Part shown: positions 1 through 11,644 of the stretch, piece by piece | How positions within the stretch are numbered: the first letter of the stretch is position 1 | How the letters are laid out: each line of letters opens with the position of its first letter | Assembly (NCBI RefSeq): GCF_018402695.1 | Contig: NZ_JAGYIM010000017.1 | Location: 56,074 to 120,073, forward strand | Direction of reading: 5' to 3' | DNA length: 64,000 nucleotides | Source of the DNA: Arsukibacterium sp. | GTDB lineage: Bacteria > Pseudomonadota > Gammaproteobacteria > Enterobacterales > Alteromonadaceae | Notes under the pieces: model-generated | Database searches by the model: none | Told to the model about the DNA's origin: nothing | Seen by the model: only the letters and a program-made list of their open reading frames with translations | Translations under genes and position numbers: made by a program

Positions 1-731
1 GGCCCAATATGCGCTTTGTAGCAGTTAAATCAGAATCACAACAAGCAGTATTAGTCATGCATCGTATGCGTGACCAATGGGTGCGTGAGCGCACTTCACT
101 GATGAACCAAATCCGCAGCTACCTGCACGAATTTGGTATCGTAATTAATCAGGGCCGTGCAGCGTTAGCCAAGACATTACCCTTGGTGGCTGAATCGGAA
201 ACCTTGCCACTGCTGTTTCGCCAAAGCATTGCGGATTTAGCTGATAGGCTGACTGATTTGGAGACGCGGATTACTGCACTTAACAAACGGATTGAAAGCT
301 GGAGTAAGCAAGATAGCACAGCAAAAGCACTACTCGAGGTCTGTGGTGTCGGTAGCGTTACCGCCAGTGCAGCAGTAGCAACGGCCGGCGATGTGTCAGT
401 ATTTAAAAACGGCCGGCAATTTGCCGCCTGGCTCGGTTTAGTACCAAGACAGAATTCATCGGGTGGTAAAACACAGCTCGGAGCCATTACCAAACGTGGC
501 GACCGTTATTTGCGAACACTGCTGGTGCAAGGCGCCCGAACAGTAATGCTGGCAGCGAGCAGAGCTCAAAAATCCACACAAACGACACCGATGTTTGAAT
601 GGATTTATAAGCTGCAAGAGCGACGGCCAAACAATGTCGTGGCAGTCGCTATCGCCGCAAAACAGGCCAGAATGCTCTGGGCAATTATGGCAAAACAGCA
701 GCGGCAAGATGCGCAAGGCTTATCAACATGA
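1..731 (+). CDS. IS110-family (IS1111-like) transposase; N-terminus lies outside the window
   Basis: Frame 3 is open from the first bases (..PNMRFVAVKSESQQ..). GVGSVTASAAVATAGD..FKNGRQFAAWLGLVPRQNSSGGK..ITKRGDRYLRTLLVQGA is the typical C-terminal IS116/IS110/IS902 transposase domain. The DEDD N-domain is off-window. Confidence 0.85.
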   Translation, partial: PNMRFVAVKSESQQAVLVMHRMRDQWVRERTSLMNQIRSYLHEFGIVINQGRAALAKTLPLVAESETLPLLFRQSIADLADRLTDLETRITALNKRIESWSKQDSTAKALLEVCGVGSVTASAAVATAGDVSVFKNGRQFAAWLGLVPRQNSSGGKTQLGAITKRGDRYLRTLLVQGARTVMLAASRAQKSTQTTPMFEWIYKLQERRPNNVVAVAIAAKQARMLWAIMAKQQRQDAQGLST

Positions 732-1489: not shown

Positions 1490-1801
1490 TTAATCAAAAA
1501 CGTACTCCTTAATTATAAAAACCTTTATGTGCTCACACTCTTGAGCATGGGCTGGCTTATGGTTTTTACAATAAGGCTCTTCATAGCCAATTACTCGCTT
1601 TGCCGTAACTAGCTTTGGACAAATCTCCATCGCACTACCTTTAGCGAAATACGATTGGCCAGAACCGTGCGGCTTTAGACTAAATACAACACCTAGCCCT
1701 TCCCTAGCCAACGGGCCGCAGTCGTCGACTTCCACTTCAATATCCTGGGCGAATACCACGGAACACCAAAGTCCTATTAGAAACGTTAAATATCTGATCA
1801 T
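1490..1801 (-). CDS. integron cassette 2 ORF, small secreted Cys-containing protein (~103 aa from ATG; the GTG at 1810 gives 106 aa)
   Basis: MIRYLTFLIGLWCSVVFA-QD is a signal peptide. The mature part has 5 Cys. The ORF fills the cassette between two attC sites. Confidence 0.6.
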   Translation of the reverse strand: MIRYLTFLIGLWCSVVFAQDIEVEVDDCGPLAREGLGVVFSLKPHGSGQSYFAKGSAMEICPKLVTAKRVIGYEEPYCKNHKPAHAQECEHIKVFIIKEYVFD

Positions 1802-1807
1802 AGTTTT

Positions 1808-1904
1808 CACATAACGCCCGGCTTTGGGGCGGACTTATAGCCGCGCAGCGGCGGAAAGGCCGTCCCAGCCCCGCAGGGGCGACAACAGCCGATTGTTAGA
1901 GCGC
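1808..1904 (-). other. attC recombination site (cassette 1)
   Basis: Minus strand: GCGCTCTAAC-AATCGGCT....AGCCGGGC-GTTATGTG. The R'' core GCTCTAAC is the exact complement of the GTTAGAGC junction at 2669-2676, as expected for one circularisable cassette. Confidence 0.8.
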
Positions 1905-1911
1905 ATTCGAG

Positions 1912-2613
1912 CTACGCATGAAGATCAACGAGTTCAGCAATTTTCTTTGCTACAACGGCCATAGAGTCTTCTGCAGTATCTAGGCCGCTCCTCGAGGCCA
2001 GCATTGGGCTGACATTACGCAGTGCGTCGTAAGTCGTCTTGTGCACAATTGGGACAAGCTGATTACGCGCCAGCAAGGCCGAGAGCTCTTTATCGGCGAC
2101 ACCTTCTTTTGGCAGCCTCACAAGAAGCGCAGGCGTTACAAGAACAAGTCCAATTTTTGAGTTCGCCAAGCCCTTATCGATTGCGCGCATCATCGGTACA
2201 CCTAAGCCAAGGTCCTTCTCGCTGAACCAGACTTTGACTCCAGCCGCCACGAGCAAGTCGTGCAGCTCCTTCGCTGACTCTTGGCGGTCGTCCCAAGCAT
2301 GGCAGAGAAACACATCCCGAAGATCTGGTTGCTGCGCTGCCCGTGCTTCAACTGCTTCGCGGAATGGTGTTAACGATACGATCTGGGCAGGCGTGTAAGA
2401 GACGGAAGAGCCGGCTCTCGACCAGCGTGGTCTTGAACCACCACTTGATCCGCTACCCCCGCTACTGCTGCGGTAGCTACTCCCTCCACTACCGGAAGAG
2501 GTGTAAGACGAAGAGTAGCCGCCGTAACCTCTACTACGATAACGACATGCTGGGCATGCAGCTGCTGCTGCCGCTGAACTATGACCGCGAACTGGAGCCG
2601 TGCATCTAGCCAT
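1912..2613 (-). CDS. TIR domain-containing protein with N-terminal Cys pair and Gly/Ser/Tyr low-complexity region (integron cassette 1)
   Basis: A strong SD (GAGGGAG) lies ~7 nt upstream of the ATG. The C-terminal ~140 aa has TIR hallmarks: DVFLCHAWDDRQ.., GVKVWFSEKDLGLG.., IGLVLVTPALL. The N-terminal part reads CPACRYRSRGYGGYSSSYTSSGSGGSSYRSSSGGSGSSGGS. Confidence 0.8.
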   Translation of the reverse strand: MARCTAPVRGHSSAAAAAACPACRYRSRGYGGYSSSYTSSGSGGSSYRSSSGGSGSSGGSRPRWSRAGSSVSYTPAQIVSLTPFREAVEARAAQQPDLRDVFLCHAWDDRQESAKELHDLLVAAGVKVWFSEKDLGLGVPMMRAIDKGLANSKIGLVLVTPALLVRLPKEGVADKELSALLARNQLVPIVHKTTYDALRNVSPMLASRSGLDTAEDSMAVVAKKIAELVDLHA

Positions 2614-2668
2614 CTCTTACTCCCTCTTTCAGCTTATTACTTCCGGTTGCGACAGAACCTGACGATGC

Positions 2669-2895
2669 GCTCTAACAATTTAATAGAAGGCACTATGCCC
2701 GCAAGTCGCACCAGCAAGTCGCCTTCAACAAAAAATTTAATTTCCCAAAACTAACCCGAAAAACACCGGTTATCAACAACTTTCTGTTTACCACTGTTAA
2801 TAAACTTAACTAAAAGTAGGCGTTGTGCCCGCAAGTTGGTGGATATTTAACTCATAGCAGACTACTGTATAAATAAACACTATCAAGGTGACGCT
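2669..2895. other. attI region (attI/cassette junction GTTAGAGC on the minus strand at 2676-2669, plus the upstream intI-proximal region)
   Basis: It lies between divergent intI and the first cassette. The junction core matches attC1 R''. Three copies of GCAAGT(C/T)G occur at 2701, 2714 and 2831; two of them extend to TGCCCGCAAGT. Confidence 0.5.
2865..2880. promoter_or_regulatory. LexA-box-like palindrome upstream of intI
   Basis: CTGTATAAATAAACAC compared with CTGT-N8-ACAG has one mismatch. It overlaps a TATAAA -10-like hexamer and ends 16 nt before the intI ATG. Confidence 0.4.
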
Positions 2896-3860
2896 ATGGC
2901 ATCCCCATTTCTGGAATATATCGCCGACTTTATGAGAACCCGCCGCTATGCCAGGCGGACTATTGACACCTACCTGTATTGGATCAAGTTTTTTATATTG
3001 CACAACAAAAAACAGCATCCAAATGCACTTGGCGATCTGGAAGTTGAACAGTTTCTGTCTTTTCTATCAAATCAACGCAATGTTGCGGTAAAAACGCAAG
3101 CAACGGCGCTTAATGCGTTGAGTTTTCTTTATAAACATATTATTCAGCGACCGTTGTCTTTGCAGCTAAATTTTAATAAAGCCCGTGTAGCTCAAAAGTT
3201 GCCAGTGGTATTAACCAGAGCAGAAATACAACAACTTCTATTAGTAATAGATCCCAAATACAAATTGATAGCCCAACTATTGTATGGCAGTGGTTTACGC
3301 CTGATGGAAGCAGTACGGCTTCGGGTGCAAGATATTGATTTTGACTACTTGTCAGTAATGGTGTGGCAGGGAAAAGGTAATAAAAACCGAAGGGTTACGC
3401 TGGCAGCAGAGTTAGTTCCTGTTTTACACATCCAAATTCATCAAATTGAACAGTATTTTCAGGCTGACTTCCAAAACCCGCAATATGCCGGTGTATGGCT
3501 GCCTTTTGCTCTTGCCCGAAAATATCCGGCAGCTCCTAGTGAAATTGGCTGGCAGTATTTATTTCCATCAGGCCAGTTAAGTGTTGATCCAGAATCTAAA
3601 CTACTACGGCGTCACCATATAGATGAAACAACTGTCAGGCGAGCCATTAAATTGGCGGCTCGACAGGCTAAAATTAAGAAAATGTAACCTGCCATACTTT
3701 GCGCCATTCATTTGCCACACATCTACTTGAAGCGGGTATGGACATCCGCACCGTACAAGAACAATTGGGCCATAGCGATGTACGCACCACCCAAATTTAC
3801 ACCCATATACTTAAACAAGGCGCCAGTGGCGTAAGAAGCCCGCTATCACAACTGCTATAA
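2896..3860 (+). pseudogene. intI: integron integrase IntI, interrupted by a frameshift at an A-run near 3676-3684
   Basis: Frame 1 (2896-3687) gives a 263-aa IntI-like N-terminal part, including the integron-specific ..WQYLFPS..RRHHIDE.. segment. The sequence continues in frame 3 as [55 protein letters not shown] to the TAA at 3858-3860. The catalytic HxxR/H/Y residues are downstream of the shift. Confidence 0.85.
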
Positions 3861-5381: not shown

Positions 5382-7982
5382 TTACACCGCGCCCTGCAAG
5401 AAGTCCTGGGCGAAGCGCTGCAGAACACCGCCCGCTTCATAAATCGACAACTCTTCTGCTGTATCCAGCCGGCAGGTCATCGGCACTTCCAGCGTCTCGC
5501 CATTTTTACGGTGAATAACCAGCGTCAGCGTTGCCCGTGGTTTACGCTCACCTTTAACATCATAGGTTTCAGTGCCATCCAGCTGCAGCGTTTGCCGGGT
5601 CGTGCCGGGTTTAAACTCCAGCGGCAATACCCCCATACCAATTAAATTGGTACGGTGAATACGCTCAAAGCCCTCAGCGGCAATCGCCTGCACTCCGGCT
5701 AAGCGCACCCCTTTGGCGGCCCAGTCACGTGATGAACCCTGACCATAATCGGCACCAGCGACAATAATCAGCGGCTGCTTACGCTGCATATAGGTTTCAA
5801 TCGCTTCCCACATGCGGGTAACCTTGCCTTCTGGTTCCAGCCGGGTTAACGAGCCCTGCTTTACCTTGCCATCGACCACCGCCATTTCATTAATCAGCTT
5901 GGGGTTAGCAAAGGTGGCCCGTTGCGCGGTTAAATGATCGCCGCGGTGGGTGGCATAAGAGTTAAAGTCCTCTTCCGGCAGGCCCATTTTATGCAAATAC
6001 TCACCGGCAGCGCTGTCCAGCATAATGGCGTTTGACGGTGATAAATGGTCGGTCGTAATATTATCGCCCAGCACCGCCAGTGGCCGCATGCCGGTTAAGC
6101 TGCGCTCGCCGGCAATAGCGCCCTCGCCCTCTGTTGCCCAGTATGGCGGACGGCGAATATAGGTACTTTGTGGCCGCCAGTCGTACAGTGGCGTAACCTG
6201 CTCACCGTAATCAACATCTACCGCAAACATTGGCTCATACACCCGGCGGAATTGCTCAGGCTTAACGCTTTTGGCCACTACCGCATCAATTTCAGCATCG
6301 TCCGGCCAGATATCCTTTAAGGTAATGGCATTGCCTTTGTCGTCATAACCTAAGATATCTTTTTCAATATCAAAGCGGATAGTACCGGCGATAGCGTAGG
6401 CCACGACTAAGGCTGGCGAGGCTAAAAATGCCTGCTTAGCGTAAGGGTGAATACGGCCATCAAAGTTCCGGTTGCCCGATAACACCGCCGTGGCATATAA
6501 ATCACGCTCGATCACTTCTTGCTGGATCACCGGGTCCAGTGCACCACTCATACCATTGCAGGTAGTACAGGCAAAACCAACAATGCCAAAGCCCAGCTGT
6601 TCCAGCTCAGACAACAAATTGCCCTCTTCCAGATACAGCTGAACCGCTTTGGAGCCGGGTGCCAGTGAGGTTTTTACCCACGGCTTACGGGTTAAGCCTT
6701 TAGCATTGGCATTACGGGCCAGTAAGCCGGCGGCAATGACGTTGCGCGGGTTAGAAGTGTTGGTACAGCTGGTGATGGCAGCAATAATGACCGCGCCATC
6801 AGGCATTTTACCCTCTTCCAGTACATAGTTGCCGGCAATGCCACGGGCGGTTAAATCACTGGTGGCTAAACGGGCATGCGGATTAGACGGCCCGGCCATA
6901 GTGCGGCCAACACTGGATAAGTCAAACTTCAACACCCGCGGGTATTGTGCTGTTACCAGACTGTCGGCCCACAAACCTGCTGTTTTGGCATAGGTTTCGA
7001 CCAGTTGCACCTGTTTGGCTTCACGGCCGGTCAGGGTTAAATAATCCAGCGTTTGCTGATCAATATAAAACATGGCCGCGGTAGCACCATATTCCGGGGT
7101 CATATTAGATATCGTTGCCCGGTCACCTAAACTCAGGCTGCTGGCACCTTCGCCATAAAACTCTAAGTAGCTCGATACCACTTTTTCTTTACGTAAAAAC
7201 TCGGTCAGCGCCAGTACAATGTCGGTCGCCATAATGCCAGGCTGGGCCTTACCGGTCAGCTCTACCCCGATAATATCAGGCAGACGCATCCAGCTGGCGC
7301 GGCCAAGCATCACACTTTCCGCTTCTAAACCGCCGACACCAATGGCAATAACGCCCAGGGCATCAACATGCGGGGTGTGGCTGTCTGTACCTACTAAAGT
7401 GTCGGGAAACGCTACCCCATCCAGGGAGTGAATTACCGGCGACATCCGCTCTAAATTAATCTGGTGCATAATGCCGTTACCCGGTGGGATAACATCGACA
7501 TTCTTAAAGGCTTTTTTGGTCCAGTTAATAAAATGAAACCGGTCATCATTACGCCGGTCTTCGATGGCCCGGTTTTTTTCAAAGGCGTCTTTGTCAAAAC
7601 CACCGTGTTCTACTGCTAACGAGTGATCCACAATTAACTGGGTTGGCACTACCGGGTTTACTTTAGCCGGGTCGCCACCCTGCTCGGCGATGGCATCTCG
7701 CAGGCCGGCCAAATCGACCAACGCGGTCTGGCCTAAAATATCGTGGCAGACGACCCGGGCCGGATACCAAGGGAAATCCAGATCATTTTTGCGGTAAATA
7801 AACTGCTTTAAAGAAGCTGTTAAGCTCGCCGGATCACAACGGCGAACCAGGTTTTCGGCAAATACCCGTGAGGTATAAGGCAGTTTGGCGTAAGCGCCGG
7901 GTTCAATAGCATCGACGGCGGCCTGAGTATCAAAATACTCCAGGTTGGTGCCGGGCAGTTTTTTACGATAATCGCTGTTCAT
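5382..7982 (-). CDS. acnD: Fe/S-dependent 2-methylcitrate dehydratase AcnD
   Basis: 866-aa aconitase-family protein with an AcnD-type N-terminus (MNSDYRKKLPGT..EYFD), located between prpC and prpF. Confidence 0.95.
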   Translation of the reverse strand: MNSDYRKKLPGTNLEYFDTQAAVDAIEPGAYAKLPYTSRVFAENLVRRCDPASLTASLKQFIYRKNDLDFPWYPARVVCHDILGQTALVDLAGLRDAIAEQGGDPAKVNPVVPTQLIVDHSLAVEHGGFDKDAFEKNRAIEDRRNDDRFHFINWTKKAFKNVDVIPPGNGIMHQINLERMSPVIHSLDGVAFPDTLVGTDSHTPHVDALGVIAIGVGGLEAESVMLGRASWMRLPDIIGVELTGKAQPGIMATDIVLALTEFLRKEKVVSSYLEFYGEGASSLSLGDRATISNMTPEYGATAAMFYIDQQTLDYLTLTGREAKQVQLVETYAKTAGLWADSLVTAQYPRVLKFDLSSVGRTMAGPSNPHARLATSDLTARGIAGNYVLEEGKMPDGAVIIAAITSCTNTSNPRNVIAAGLLARNANAKGLTRKPWVKTSLAPGSKAVQLYLEEGNLLSELEQLGFGIVGFACTTCNGMSGALDPVIQQEVIERDLYATAVLSGNRNFDGRIHPYAKQAFLASPALVVAYAIAGTIRFDIEKDILGYDDKGNAITLKDIWPDDAEIDAVVAKSVKPEQFRRVYEPMFAVDVDYGEQVTPLYDWRPQSTYIRRPPYWATEGEGAIAGERSLTGMRPLAVLGDNITTDHLSPSNAIMLDSAAGEYLHKMGLPEEDFNSYATHRGDHLTAQRATFANPKLINEMAVVDGKVKQGSLTRLEPEGKVTRMWEAIETYMQRKQPLIIVAGADYGQGSSRDWAAKGVRLAGVQAIAAEGFERIHRTNLIGMGVLPLEFKPGTTRQTLQLDGTETYDVKGERKPRATLTLVIHRKNGETLEVPMTCRLDTAEELSIYEAGGVLQRFAQDFLQGAV

Positions 7983-8030
7983 TGTAGTTACCTGTCTGGC
8001 AGAAGAGAGTAAAGCCCGATATTACACAGT

Positions 8031-8120
8031 GGAAGAATCGGTTTGCCCTAAGCCGACCGTTGAAGCCCTGGACGGGCGGAAACGAGCCCCCATGGATGGG
8101 TTCACGGCGTGTCGGCGTGG
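8031..8120. repeat. long imperfect hairpin in the acnD-prpC spacer
   Basis: CGGTTTGCCCTAAGCCGAC (8031-8049) pairs with GTCGGCGTGGGCAAACCG (8103-8120). The interior is GC-rich. Confidence 0.45.
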
Positions 8121-8218
8121 GCAAACCGGTTCGTACACAAACTTACCGGTTTATTAGCTGGCTAAACGCTCTCTAAAAATTCGGGTTAATATGCAACCTA
8201 TCGGTTGGAATCCCGCCA

Positions 8219-8273
8219 TGCTCGCCACAGCAACTCGCCCTTATGCCTGCGGCAGGGCTCAGACACTCTGTGG
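8219..8273 (+). repeat. intergenic repeat copy C
   Basis: TGCTCGCCACAGCAACTCGCCCTTATGCCTGCGGCAGGGCTCAGACACTCTGTGG; see copies A and B. Confidence 0.65.
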
Positions 8274-8324
8274 CTGCGCTAACGGGTTCCAACCTCAGTT
8301 CCGTTTTACAGCTTTGCTAGTTAC

Positions 8325-9452
8325 TTACCGCTCGCCAATCGGTTTAACACTGCGTGGCTCAACACCAACATAGTCAGCACTTGGCCGGATAATGCGGTTA
8401 TCCGCGCGCTGCTCCATCACATGGGCAGCCCAGCCGGTTAAACGGCTGCAAACAAAAATTGGCGTAAACAGCTTGGTTGGAATACCCATGTAGTTGTAAG
8501 CCGACGCATGGAAAAAGTCGGCGTTACAAAATAACTTCTTCTCACGCCACATTACCGCTTCACAGCGCTCTGATACATCATATAAACGTGTGTCGCCATT
8601 AGCCTTAGCTAACTTTTCTGACCAGGCTTTTATAACCGCATTGCGAGGGTCGGAATCAGCATAAACCGCATGGCCAAAGCCCATAATTTTCTCTTTGCGT
8701 TCCAGCATCCCCAGCAGCTTTTGCTCTGCATCTTCTGGGTCTTTCATGTTTTCAATCAGTTCCATCGCCGCTTCGTTGGCACCACCATGCAACGGGCCGC
8801 GTAACGAGCCAATAGCACCGGTAATACAGGAATGCATATCGCTAAGGGTAGAGGCACAAACCCGGGCCGTAAAGGTAGAAGCGTTAAACTCATGCTCAGC
8901 ATATAAAATCAGCGACGCTTCCATCACCTGAGTGTGCAATGCGGTTGGCTTAACGCCATGCAGGGTCCATAAAAACTGTTCAGCGGTAGAATTTGCATCA
9001 GTTTCCACTTCAATCTGTTTATTATGATGACTGTAGTTGTACCAGTAATTCACCATACCCGGAAATATAGCCAGCATGCGGTCGGTAACATCTTGTTGCT
9101 CGGCAAAACGCTGCTCGGTTTCCAGGTTACCCAGCATAGAACAGCCGGTTCGCATCACATCCATTGGGTGGGCTGATGCCGGGATCCGCTCCAGCACATC
9201 TTTTAATGCCTGAGGTAATGCCCGCATGTTTTTCAATGTGGTTTTATATTGCGCCAGCTCGCTCTTGTTCGGCAGCTCGCCTTTTAAAATCAGAAACGCG
9301 ACTTCATCAAATTCGCAACTTGCGGCTAAATCTTTTACATCGTAACCCCGATAGGTTAAACCAGAACCCGTTTTACCAACCGTTGATAAAGCTGTTTTGC
9401 CGGCAACCTGACCACGCAGGCCGGCCCCTGATAATTGTTTTGCATTTGCCAT
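8325..9452 (-). CDS. prpC: 2-methylcitrate synthase
   Basis: 375-aa citrate synthase family protein in prp operon context. Confidence 0.95.
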   Translation of the reverse strand: MANAKQLSGAGLRGQVAGKTALSTVGKTGSGLTYRGYDVKDLAASCEFDEVAFLILKGELPNKSELAQYKTTLKNMRALPQALKDVLERIPASAHPMDVMRTGCSMLGNLETEQRFAEQQDVTDRMLAIFPGMVNYWYNYSHHNKQIEVETDANSTAEQFLWTLHGVKPTALHTQVMEASLILYAEHEFNASTFTARVCASTLSDMHSCITGAIGSLRGPLHGGANEAAMELIENMKDPEDAEQKLLGMLERKEKIMGFGHAVYADSDPRNAVIKAWSEKLAKANGDTRLYDVSERCEAVMWREKKLFCNADFFHASAYNYMGIPTKLFTPIFVCSRLTGWAAHVMEQRADNRIIRPSADYVGVEPRSVKPIGER

Positions 9453-11167: not shown

Positions 11168-11540
11168 CGCCTAAAGTAGTAGACAGGCTAGCAACCAAGA
11201 TGGCATAGCCGCTGCTGCTGCCTCAGTTAAATTACGTTGAGTAAAATTATTTTTTAGACTTTTTTATTATTAACAAATTAACAATCTATACAAATGTCTT
11301 ATAAAAAACATTTGCACCCAAATAAGGACAAAGGCTGCAATAACGCCATGCTGCGGCACAAAACAGGGGATAAGCTGGGTATAACCTGAGCGGAAACGGT
11401 GGGTAACTTTGCCAGAAAACAGAATTAAGGACCTGACAGCAACAGGAAAAAATGAATTAGCTTTACTACACTTGCCTTTACCTTATTTGCAACACTTTTT
11501 CGATAGCGCACGGCTCATTCCCTATGAGCCATTCCCCTAG

Positions 11541-11578
11541 GCCCAGAACAATTCGGATTGGTTCTGGGCTTCTTTTAT
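11541..11578 (+). terminator. strong orphan intrinsic terminator (plus strand)
   Basis: GCCCAGAACAAT-tcgg-ATTGTTCTGGGC is a 12-bp perfect stem followed by TTCTTTTAT. It is preceded by a second hairpin, GGCTCAT-tccct-ATGAGCC. There is no plus-strand ORF upstream. Confidence 0.65.
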
Positions 11579-11644
11579 CTGCAACTTCAAATAATTGTGA
11601 CAGCCAAGCCAGAATTCAGCGTAATGCTGAATTAAAGCCAAGGG

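Follow-up and report, generated by a model that had tools for sequence, protein, structure and literature searches.

A solitary, widely transferred TIR gene with an N-terminal Cys/His motif and a disordered Ser/Gly/Tyr/Arg tract in the first integron cassette of an Arsukibacterium genome

The first gene cassette of a chromosomal integron in Arsukibacterium sp. (NCBI RefSeq assembly GCF_018402695.1, contig NZ_JAGYIM010000017.1) encodes a small protein with a C-terminal TIR domain, and we analysed this gene and its family starting from a 64,000-nucleotide stretch of the contig (positions 56,074 to 120,073), hereafter referred to as the window, whose own numbering is used below. The gene is an intact open reading frame (ORF) of 233 codons on the minus strand (1912-2613), with an ATG start codon at 2613-2611 and a TAG stop codon at 1914-1912. 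The strong Shine-Dalgarno (SD) sequence that an earlier note on this DNA had assigned to it is present as GAGGGAG (2620-2626, minus strand), with 6 nt between it and the ATG, and the same SD is also kept in two related loci (L119 and L121). The 233-aa product begins with MARCTAPVRGHSSAAAAAACPACR, continues with YRSRGYGGYSSSYTSSGSGGSSYRSSSGGSGSSGGS, and ends with the C-terminal region containing the motifs quoted in the earlier note. Four parts could be distinguished, all encoded on the minus strand: a putative zinc knuckle (residues 1-24, MARCTAPVRGHSSAAAAAACPACR; 2542-2613), delimited by motif conservation and selection; a disordered, cationic Ser/Gly/Tyr/Arg tract (residues 25-60; 2434-2541), recognised by model confidence and composition; a RPRWS...SYTPxQ segment with a pre-TIR helix at residues 75-94 (residues 61-98; 2320-2433), taken from the alignment and an AlphaFold2 (AF2) model; and the TIR domain (residues 99-233; 1915-2319), delimited by Pfam, PDB profile, and Foldseek comparisons.

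The TIR identity of the C-terminal domain, which the earlier note had read from short motifs, is sound. The Pfam model TIR_2 (PF13676) matches residues 101-211 well above threshold (E=2.2e-14, 54.4 bits against a cut-off of 28), and a single-sequence search of the PDB matched PdTIR, BtpA/TcpB, AbTir, and BtTir at ~1e-15, the family profile giving 1e-24 to 1e-27 for these proteins. In the AF2 model, which was built on a 35-sequence alignment, a TIR fold is predicted with confidence over residues 99-229 (predicted local distance difference test, pLDDT, mostly 80-92), preceded by the helix at 75-94, and the N-terminal element, with short helices at 14-24, is of moderate confidence (pLDDT 59-71). 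The top Foldseek matches of this model were again BtpA/TcpB, PdTIR, BtTir, and AbTir (E ~1e-9, probability 1.0, TM (target) 0.75-0.85). NCBIfam holds no specific model for the protein, giving only a weak retron-TIR match far below its cut-off (E=7.9e-11) and a UdgX-family match (E=0.018), and a fold search of BFVD returned remote eukaryotic-virus TIRs only.

The active site appears to be in place. In the profile alignment, the family segment EGVADKEL pairs with KDWTNYEL of AbTir, which puts E176 (GAG codon at 2086-2088, minus strand) at the position of the catalytic Glu E208 of AbTir and V172 (GTC codon at 2098-2100, minus strand) at that of W204. E176 lies in DKELSAL and is invariant in the set of 20 close homologues (A1) and at least 90% conserved in a wider set that includes distant relatives (A3), and G138, which aligns with the BB-loop residue G174 of AbTir, is invariant in both sets. 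The earlier note had instead pointed to the Glu of WFSEKD as the catalytic residue, but this residue (E132) pairs with E168 in the WYDEF strand of AbTir, so that the assignment has to be moved to E176. The family also differs from AbTir by a 4-residue insertion before helix C. The E208A mutant of AbTir is inactive (Manik et al., 10.1101/2022.05.07.491051). We consider it highly probable that the TIR domain of the window protein is enzymatically competent. With regard to the product, in TIR cyclases that make isomers of cyclic ADP-ribose (cADPR) the fourth residue ahead of the catalytic Glu is aromatic, in most cases Trp, and the W204A mutation of AbTir shifts its product from 2'cADPR to ADP-ribose (ADPR) (10.1101/2022.05.07.491051). 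No such aromatic residue is found in the window protein, which has V172 there, and the W204-equivalent position is occupied by Val (67) or Ile (18) in all 85 of the loci compared; Trp appears in more distant relatives. Taken together with the AbTir mutant, this hints that ADPR rather than cADPR would be the main product, which would suit an NAD+-depleting effector better than a signal generator.

The Cys pair singled out in the earlier note does exist (CPAC at residues 20-23), but it does not stand by itself: it is half of a four-ligand motif, C4-x6-H11-x8-C20-x2-[C/H]23, in which C20-P-x-C23 forms the second half. All four positions are invariant in the 20 close homologues and were found in 83 of 85 loci detected independently by tblastn, the two exceptions being N-terminally truncated or rearranged; the motif is retained in relatives down to 49% identity, with His as the fourth ligand in two of them (P0123 and P0145). 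Such a Cys-to-His swap is of the kind expected of metal ligands, and judging from this ligand pattern, the C4/H11/C20/C23 motif probably binds zinc. Searches for a known family at the N-terminus were largely negative. When the N-terminal 98 and 30 residues were scanned against Pfam at E up to 10, the sole match was a weak one to Zn_ribbon_19 (E=0.14); the only PDB sequences matched were the Gly/Ser linkers of scFv constructs, and no homology to any nucleic-acid-binding family was detected in either search. Viral contigs were also searched for the motif fused to domains other than TIR: all 27 proteins with the full C..GH...C..C motif carry a TIR domain, and the other four matches to the pattern were due to chance.

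The motif is followed by the tract RYRSRGYGGYSSSYTSSGSGGSSYRSSSGGSGSSGGS (residues 24-60), and the AF2 model has pLDDT values below 50 over residues 28-61. Across 100 unique family members, the tract, defined here as lying between CPxC and the conserved RPRWS, is composed of 37% Ser, 24% Gly, 13% Tyr, and 10% Arg, with 2.5% Asn and 0.3% Gln; Asp and Glu together make up ~0.6%, and 76 of the 100 tracts contain neither. Its length varies between 27 and 48 aa (72 loci measured), and its aromatic residues are mostly spaced 3-5 positions apart. Low-complexity domains of the FUS type have been described in terms of Tyr/Arg "stickers" and Gly/Ser "spacers", and the bacterial tract shares this mix. 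The earlier note had likened a [G/S]Y[G/S]-type tract to eukaryotic phase-separating domains of this type. The tract itself is real, but the likeness to FUS is a loose one: in the window protein it is 36 aa long with only two strict [GS]Y[GS] motifs (0-6 in the family, median 3), and the label of a FUS-type prion-like domain was rejected because the tract is too short, too poor in Gln/Asn, and has 10% Arg.

The earlier note had considered that the true start codon might lie downstream of the tract. The first Met and the N-terminal motif do not vary, the next Met comes only at residue 141, and insertions and deletions within the tract always leave the reading frame intact; thus, the TIR domain could not be produced without translation of the tract. 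Its length variation is not a matter of simple slippage, since a search for DNA tandem repeats in this low-complexity stretch found none. Pairwise Nei-Gojobori estimates from 600 gene pairs gave ratios of nonsynonymous to synonymous substitution rates (dN/dS) of 0.19 for the knuckle (1-24), 0.37 for the tract (25-60), 0.20 for the pre-TIR segment (61-98), and 0.11 for the TIR domain (99-233). The tract is the least constrained region yet is under purifying selection, and the difficulty of aligning it makes 0.37 an upper bound. The tract can thus be described as disordered, cationic, rich in Tyr and Arg, and under selection.

More distant members of the family (35-45% identity) lack both knuckle and tract and have a charged N-terminus instead, and the pre-TIR segment retains a [VLI]xYTxxE element even in relatives without these N-terminal parts. 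One sister protein (P0192, 35% identical) is predicted by AF2 to form a single 74-residue helix (residues 8-81, pLDDT ~90), behind which come a pre-TIR helix and a TIR domain as in the window protein. In the AF2 model of the window protein no N-terminal coiled coil is present, only the short helices at 14-24 and disorder over 28-61, so that the knuckle and the intrinsically disordered region (IDR) appear to occupy the structural place of an oligomerising helix. Together with the coiled coils of AbTir-type proteins, the sister helix lends indirect support to the idea of the N-terminus as an assembly element.

The cassette that carries the gene is 861 bp long (1815-2675, minus strand) and contains no other ORF. 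Its attC site (~1904-1809, minus strand) shows R'' GCGCTCTAAC and R' GCGTTATGT (GTTATGT) and folds at -21.7 kcal/mol with a z-score of only -1.0 against shuffles; because this fold is no better than that of shuffled sequences, the identity of the attC rests on the core motifs and on the comparison of boundaries. On the cassette strand, the attI-cassette junction reads AAATTG followed by TTAGAGCGC, with the cut between G2676 and T2675. In Halopseudomonas laoshanensis (L122), a block of 865 bp corresponds precisely to window positions 2676-1812 and shares 98.7% identity with them, and a metagenome contig (L119) is 95.9% identical from 2676 to 1794, the flanks of both being different outside GTTAGAGCGC and GCGTTATG (GTT sites). 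The presence of a near-identical cassette of exact length in another species shows recent cassette exchange. The earlier note had placed the gene alone in the first cassette, next to attI; the attC core motifs, the divergent integrase gene intI, and the boundaries matched in these two loci bear this out, and the cassette is genuinely mobile. Cassette 1 has a GC content of 55%, compared with 39-43% for the other cassette ORFs and intI. The Halopseudomonas copy (7938-8802 of QOVF01000006.1) lies internally in an array of ~15 small same-strand ORFs. The further statement that cassette 1 holds the best expressed position found no backing at this locus: a consensus scan of 1750-3100 for a sigma-70-like promoter and a terminator detected none, so high expression is an expectation from integron biology only.

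The family is large and is spread over distant phyla. All of the 90%-identity clusters scored, i.e., at least 8000, matched at E <1e-3, the best 120 of them being 77-98% identical, and among 50%-identity representatives, 135 matched at E <=1e-30 and 1560 at <=1e-10. In a scan of one genome per species, at least 590 stretches encode a family member. Hosts include Gamma-, Beta-, and Alphaproteobacteria, Bacteroidota, Bacillota, Cyanobacteria, Acidobacteriota, Bdellovibrionales, and one Peribacteraceae genome; most are environmental bacteria, and the same N-terminus occurs in both Gram-negative and Gram-positive species. Proteins from distant phyla are 60-85% identical, which argues for frequent recent transfer. 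Family members were found in 362 plasmid records, ~240 of which are from Klebsiella, Escherichia, Citrobacter, and Enterobacter, with IncF plasmids of Klebsiella and E. coli among them, and half of the records (180/362) are conjugative plasmids; in ~146 records, the plasmid allele shares 80-90% identity with the window protein. Other carriers include the Bacillus cereus emetic plasmid pCER270 (WP_000251104, RefSeq name "toll/interleukin-1 receptor domain-containing protein"), an integrative and conjugative element (ICE) of Bordetella trematum, in which a family member is part of the cargo, and 27 IMG/VR viral contigs that encode the full architecture, and deposited phage genomes gave only three remote matches (~30% identity). 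On the IncFIB plasmid pA708-2 of Klebsiella quasipneumoniae (L086, 3276-7094), the 235-aa member WP_087796141 lies between two ISNCY transposase genes of the same orientation, an arrangement that looks like a composite transposon.

Integrons account for a small part of this distribution. An attC-like hairpin was found downstream of the gene in ~10 of 85 loci compared with 5 of 166 control windows, in a crude scan that may undercount, and an integrase (IntI) within 6 kb in 2 of 85, and the idea of the family as an integron speciality was rejected on these counts. In one locus with an adjoining integron integrase (L055, 4741-6615, from Candidatus Nitrotoga sp. LAW), the first two knuckle ligands are replaced (QHQCVVITQQAAAAACPAC), which suggests a cassette truncated or rearranged at attI. 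The integron is thus one of many vehicles of a promiscuously mobile single-gene family. That the gene acts as a single-gene module had been proposed in the earlier note and agrees with its surroundings: when all ORFs within 4 kb were clustered for 82 loci, no conserved neighbour emerged, the best cluster being present in only 6 of them, and a conserved partner gene such as ThsA or an antitoxin was rejected. In these 6 loci (L084, L044, L059, and others), a small ORF on the same strand ends ~4 nt before the TIR start, and its product has a C-terminus that looks DUF2188-like by eye (VVPREDGWAVRGAGAQRDTQVFDRKQDAVDRAREIS). No other neighbour recurs, and this one is too infrequent to serve the whole family as a partner.

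The best sequence and fold matches of the window protein are all bacterial TIR proteins of the group of AbTir, BtTir, PdTIR, and BtpA (TcpB; PDB 7uwg, 7uxu, 8g83, 7uxr, 3h16, 4lzp, 4lqc, 4c7m). Like the window family, these have the catalytic Glu, the BB-loop Gly, a C-terminal TIR domain behind a non-catalytic N-terminal region, and no obligatory partner gene. They differ in having a coiled coil in place of the CHCC knuckle and disordered S/G/Y/R tract, and the cyclisation Trp (W204 of AbTir) in place of Val/Ile, and TIR identity is only ~30%. The N-terminal coiled coil has been described for AbTir, BtTir, and AaTir, and the NADases of the AbTir/BtTir/PdTIR/BtpA group have TIR domains that lack activity in the crystal dimer but show it in two-stranded head-to-tail filaments (10.1101/2022.05.07.491051). 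SpbK of Bacillus subtilis, also a stand-alone TIR protein on a mobile element, is an NADase whose activity needs clustering-induced two-stranded head-to-tail TIR assemblies, and it acts as an abortive-infection protein that is clustered by a phage portal protein via a folded N-terminal region (PMC12847820); however, SpbK was not among our sequence or fold matches, and the N-terminus of the window family is a knuckle plus IDR rather than a folded region. Integron phage-defence cassettes (BRiCs and the Vibrio SCI systems) resemble cassette 1 in being compact single ORFs with an attC, but the window family is mostly found outside integrons. Integrons as such are documented reservoirs of defence genes in which the first position boosts expression, as stated in a review (PMC13434031), and TIR cassettes have been noted before in plant-microbiome integrons, where they were classed as predicted host immune regulators (PMC11089894). 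No validated TIR cassette is reported in the passages of the integron literature consulted, and the Mobile Integrons preprint contains 0 occurrences of "TIR domain". The family as such is annotated in RefSeq and falls inside a PADLOC model; for the conserved CHCC knuckle, the selected S/G/Y/R tract, and the wide transfer of this solitary architecture, no description was found in the searchable literature. The integron context is ordinary, and the architecture is a good experimental lead on how minimal TIR enzymes are turned on.

Considering these features, we propose that cassette 1 encodes a self-contained TIR NAD+ glycohydrolase of the bacterial AbTir/BtpA/PdTIR clade, belonging to a family whose single gene is carried from genome to genome by integron cassettes, plasmids, ICEs, and prophages. 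The protein would consist of four parts, a CHCC zinc knuckle, a disordered tract of 27-48 residues, a conserved helix, and the TIR domain. Like its solved relatives, the TIR domain would be inactive as a monomer or dimer and become active once several domains cluster head-to-tail. The module of zinc knuckle and IDR would trigger this clustering upon a cue, e.g., a phage component, a nucleic acid, or a polyanion, and the active TIR domain would then hydrolyse NAD+, mainly to ADPR and nicotinamide, leading to growth arrest or abortive infection and thereby guarding the host or the mobile element. We consider this proposal as a whole, i.e., a clustering-activated TIR NADase that probably serves defence, to be evenly balanced between right and wrong. 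The computational results cover the intact gene, the TIR fold, the conserved catalytic Glu, the conserved motif and tract composition, selection, the solitary setting, and the cassette ends, whereas activity, product, mode of activation, and a part in defence are inferred. The defence or abortive-infection role, taken separately, may be given about equal chances of being true or false. That the N-terminal module is an assembly or sensing element is a tentative suggestion, which we hold to be somewhat on the doubtful side. Its most specific form, in which knuckle and tract are a built-in sensor and condensation switch, so that a phage polyanion or other cue would cluster the IDR and thereby assemble the TIR active sites, is rather unlikely. 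Condensation as an on-switch of TIR enzymes has a precedent: in plants, condensation of TIR-only proteins is reportedly induced by substrate and proceeds through the TIR domain itself, not through an appended IDR.

One alternative is that the protein is a Thoeris-type ThsB, in which the TIR domain makes a signalling nucleotide for an effector (ThsA or another) whose gene lies at a different locus of the genome. The window protein is TIR-only as ThsB is, and PADLOC model PDLC00424 matches it in full length (1-231 vs 1-234, E=9.7e-125), so that the family is catalogued with ThsB proteins, which are TIR signal producers (10.1101/2022.05.07.491051; PMC13434031). This model has evidently been built from the TIR family of the window, and a candidate model, PDC-S66, also matches the protein (1.6e-26); PADLOC thus places the family among defence TIRs. 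However, ThsA is adjacent to the TIR gene in Thoeris by definition, and here no ThsA adjoins it, nor is ThsA or any other partner conserved beside it in the 82 loci, where the best neighbour cluster (6 loci) is unrelated; cassettes 2 and 3 and ten large ORFs of the window have no ThsA or other defence match in PADLOC, and the family was for this reason not filed as Thoeris. Moreover, carriage as a single-gene cassette, as insertion sequence (IS)-flanked plasmid copies, and as ICE cargo would repeatedly part the gene from a partner, and the aromatic residue of all cyclase TIRs is absent. A ThsB-type function is therefore unlikely in our judgement. The mobility of the family could also be read in terms of a selfish gene for competition between elements, or an anti-defence gene, that aids its mobile element against rival plasmids or phages or consumes or mimics host immune nucleotides instead of defending the cell. 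The bias towards mobile elements (180/362 conjugative plasmids, the ICE, prophages, cassettes) and the frequent recent transfer implied by 60-85% identity across distant phyla fit such a role, but defence genes share the same distribution, no antitoxin-like partner is conserved, and only the three remote matches came from deposited phage genomes, and we regard it as improbable.

Other alternatives concern the target. The knuckle and the Arg/Gly/Tyr/Ser tract might bind RNA, and the TIR domain might act on NAD-capped RNA (deNAMing) or on nucleic acids rather than on free NAD+, in which case transcripts would be regulated or attacked. The N-terminal module is cationic, has no acidic residues, is rich in Tyr and Arg, and adjoins a Cys/His knuckle, and a cationic Tyr/Arg tract next to such a knuckle is typical of eukaryotic RNA-binding proteins. 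AbTir and other prokaryotic TIRs also strip nicotinamide from NAD-RNA, in E. coli before NAD+ falls (PMC10937652). Nevertheless, the N-terminus has no detectable homology to nucleic-acid-binding families and the likeness is compositional only, which leaves an RNA-directed TIR quite improbable. It has also to be considered whether the protein is a host-directed effector of the "Tcp" type, acting like BtpA/TcpB on eukaryotic TIR signalling or NAD+ metabolism, given that Brucella BtpA/TcpB is among the closest solved structures and that cassette TIRs have been classed as predicted host immune regulators (PMC11089894). No signal peptide or recognisable secretion signal was found in the protein, the same N-terminus is shared by Gram-negatives, Gram-positives, cyanobacteria, acidobacteria, and a candidate-phylum genome, mostly from environmental bacteria, and prophages carry the gene, all of which makes a host-directed role highly unlikely.

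Several points also weigh against the clustering-activated NADase that we favour. The AbTir BB-loop residues S176 and R178 are not conserved position for position in the family, and Val at the W204 position is compatible with non-cyclic signals such as the His-ADPR of type II Thoeris. The zinc site is deduced from a ligand pattern, with no structural or family match beyond Zn_ribbon_19 (E=0.14), and the tract is short for phase separation and could be a mere flexible tether. Expression of the gene in its host is presumed, the consensus scan having found no promoter upstream of it, and the searchable literature yielded no experiment on any family member. If the N-terminal module has no control over activity, the gene would simply be one more integron-captured TIR gene. 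Several well-studied bacterial TIR immune enzymes belong to multi-gene systems or have folded sensors; this family is a single gene of 230 residues whose only additions to the TIR domain are a tiny, putatively metal-binding motif and a disordered tract under selection, and few of the TIR genes found are as widespread (at least 590 stretches, hundreds of clinical Enterobacteriaceae plasmids, pCER270, prophages, and cassettes). If the module does control activity, the family would offer a minimal and tractable system for the switching of TIR NADases by clustering or condensation, the same question as is posed by plant TIR-only proteins and SARM1, and, as a common determinant carried by plasmids, it could also have a bearing on phage therapy. 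A true condensation switch would be the first case in bacteria of an immune effector controlled by an appended, disordered region of the sticker-spacer kind, in a single-gene TIR family that ranks among those most widely transferred and is found on clinical plasmids of Klebsiella and E. coli.

The remainder of the integron is as follows. The attI region between intI and cassette 1 (2676-2895, minus strand) contains a 26-nt direct repeat (2681-2706 and 2811-2836, 81% identical, 130 nt apart) and a third, shorter copy of the repeat core (CCCGCAAGT, 2711-2722); the 26-nt repeats may be the integrase-binding direct repeats of attI. The integrase gene intI (2896-3860, plus strand) is divergent from the cassettes and matches TIGR02249 at E=8.6e-101. 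Its frame is broken near 3680-3699: the ORF at 2896-3687 covers positions 1-257 of the 315 of TIGR02249, and the catalytic C-terminus lies in another frame (3699-3860), with the break at an A-run (AAGAAAATG). This is either a true pseudogene, which would make the array static, or a homopolymer sequencing error. Cassette 2 (1412-1814) has an ORF of 106 aa (1490-1810) with a hydrophobic, signal-like N-terminus (MKTMIRYLTFLIGLWCSVVFAQ), and its attC (1400-1492) folds at -19.1 kcal/mol (z=-2.2). Cassette 3 has an ORF of 126 aa (1021-1401). Neither protein has a match in Pfam, NCBIfam, or PADLOC, and neither ORF has an obvious SD, a difference from the TIR gene that the earlier note had correctly seen. 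The attC of cassette 3 begins with CACATAAC near 1010-1017, and ~290 nt (732-1020) separate the ORF of cassette 3 from an IS110-family transposase gene (Transposase_20 and the end of DEDD_Tnp_IS110; 1-731, plus strand) that is cut by the window edge. An IS110-type element may have inserted in the attC of cassette 3 and interrupted the array.

The rest of the window is ordinary chromosome, including a prpF-acnD-prpC-prpB operon, tatD, holB, mltG, and fab genes. Between the prp regulator and tatD (11440-11580), we also observed the overlapping antisense small RNA pair SdsR/RyeB (plus strand, 58 bits) and SraC/RyeA (minus strand, 43.6 bits).

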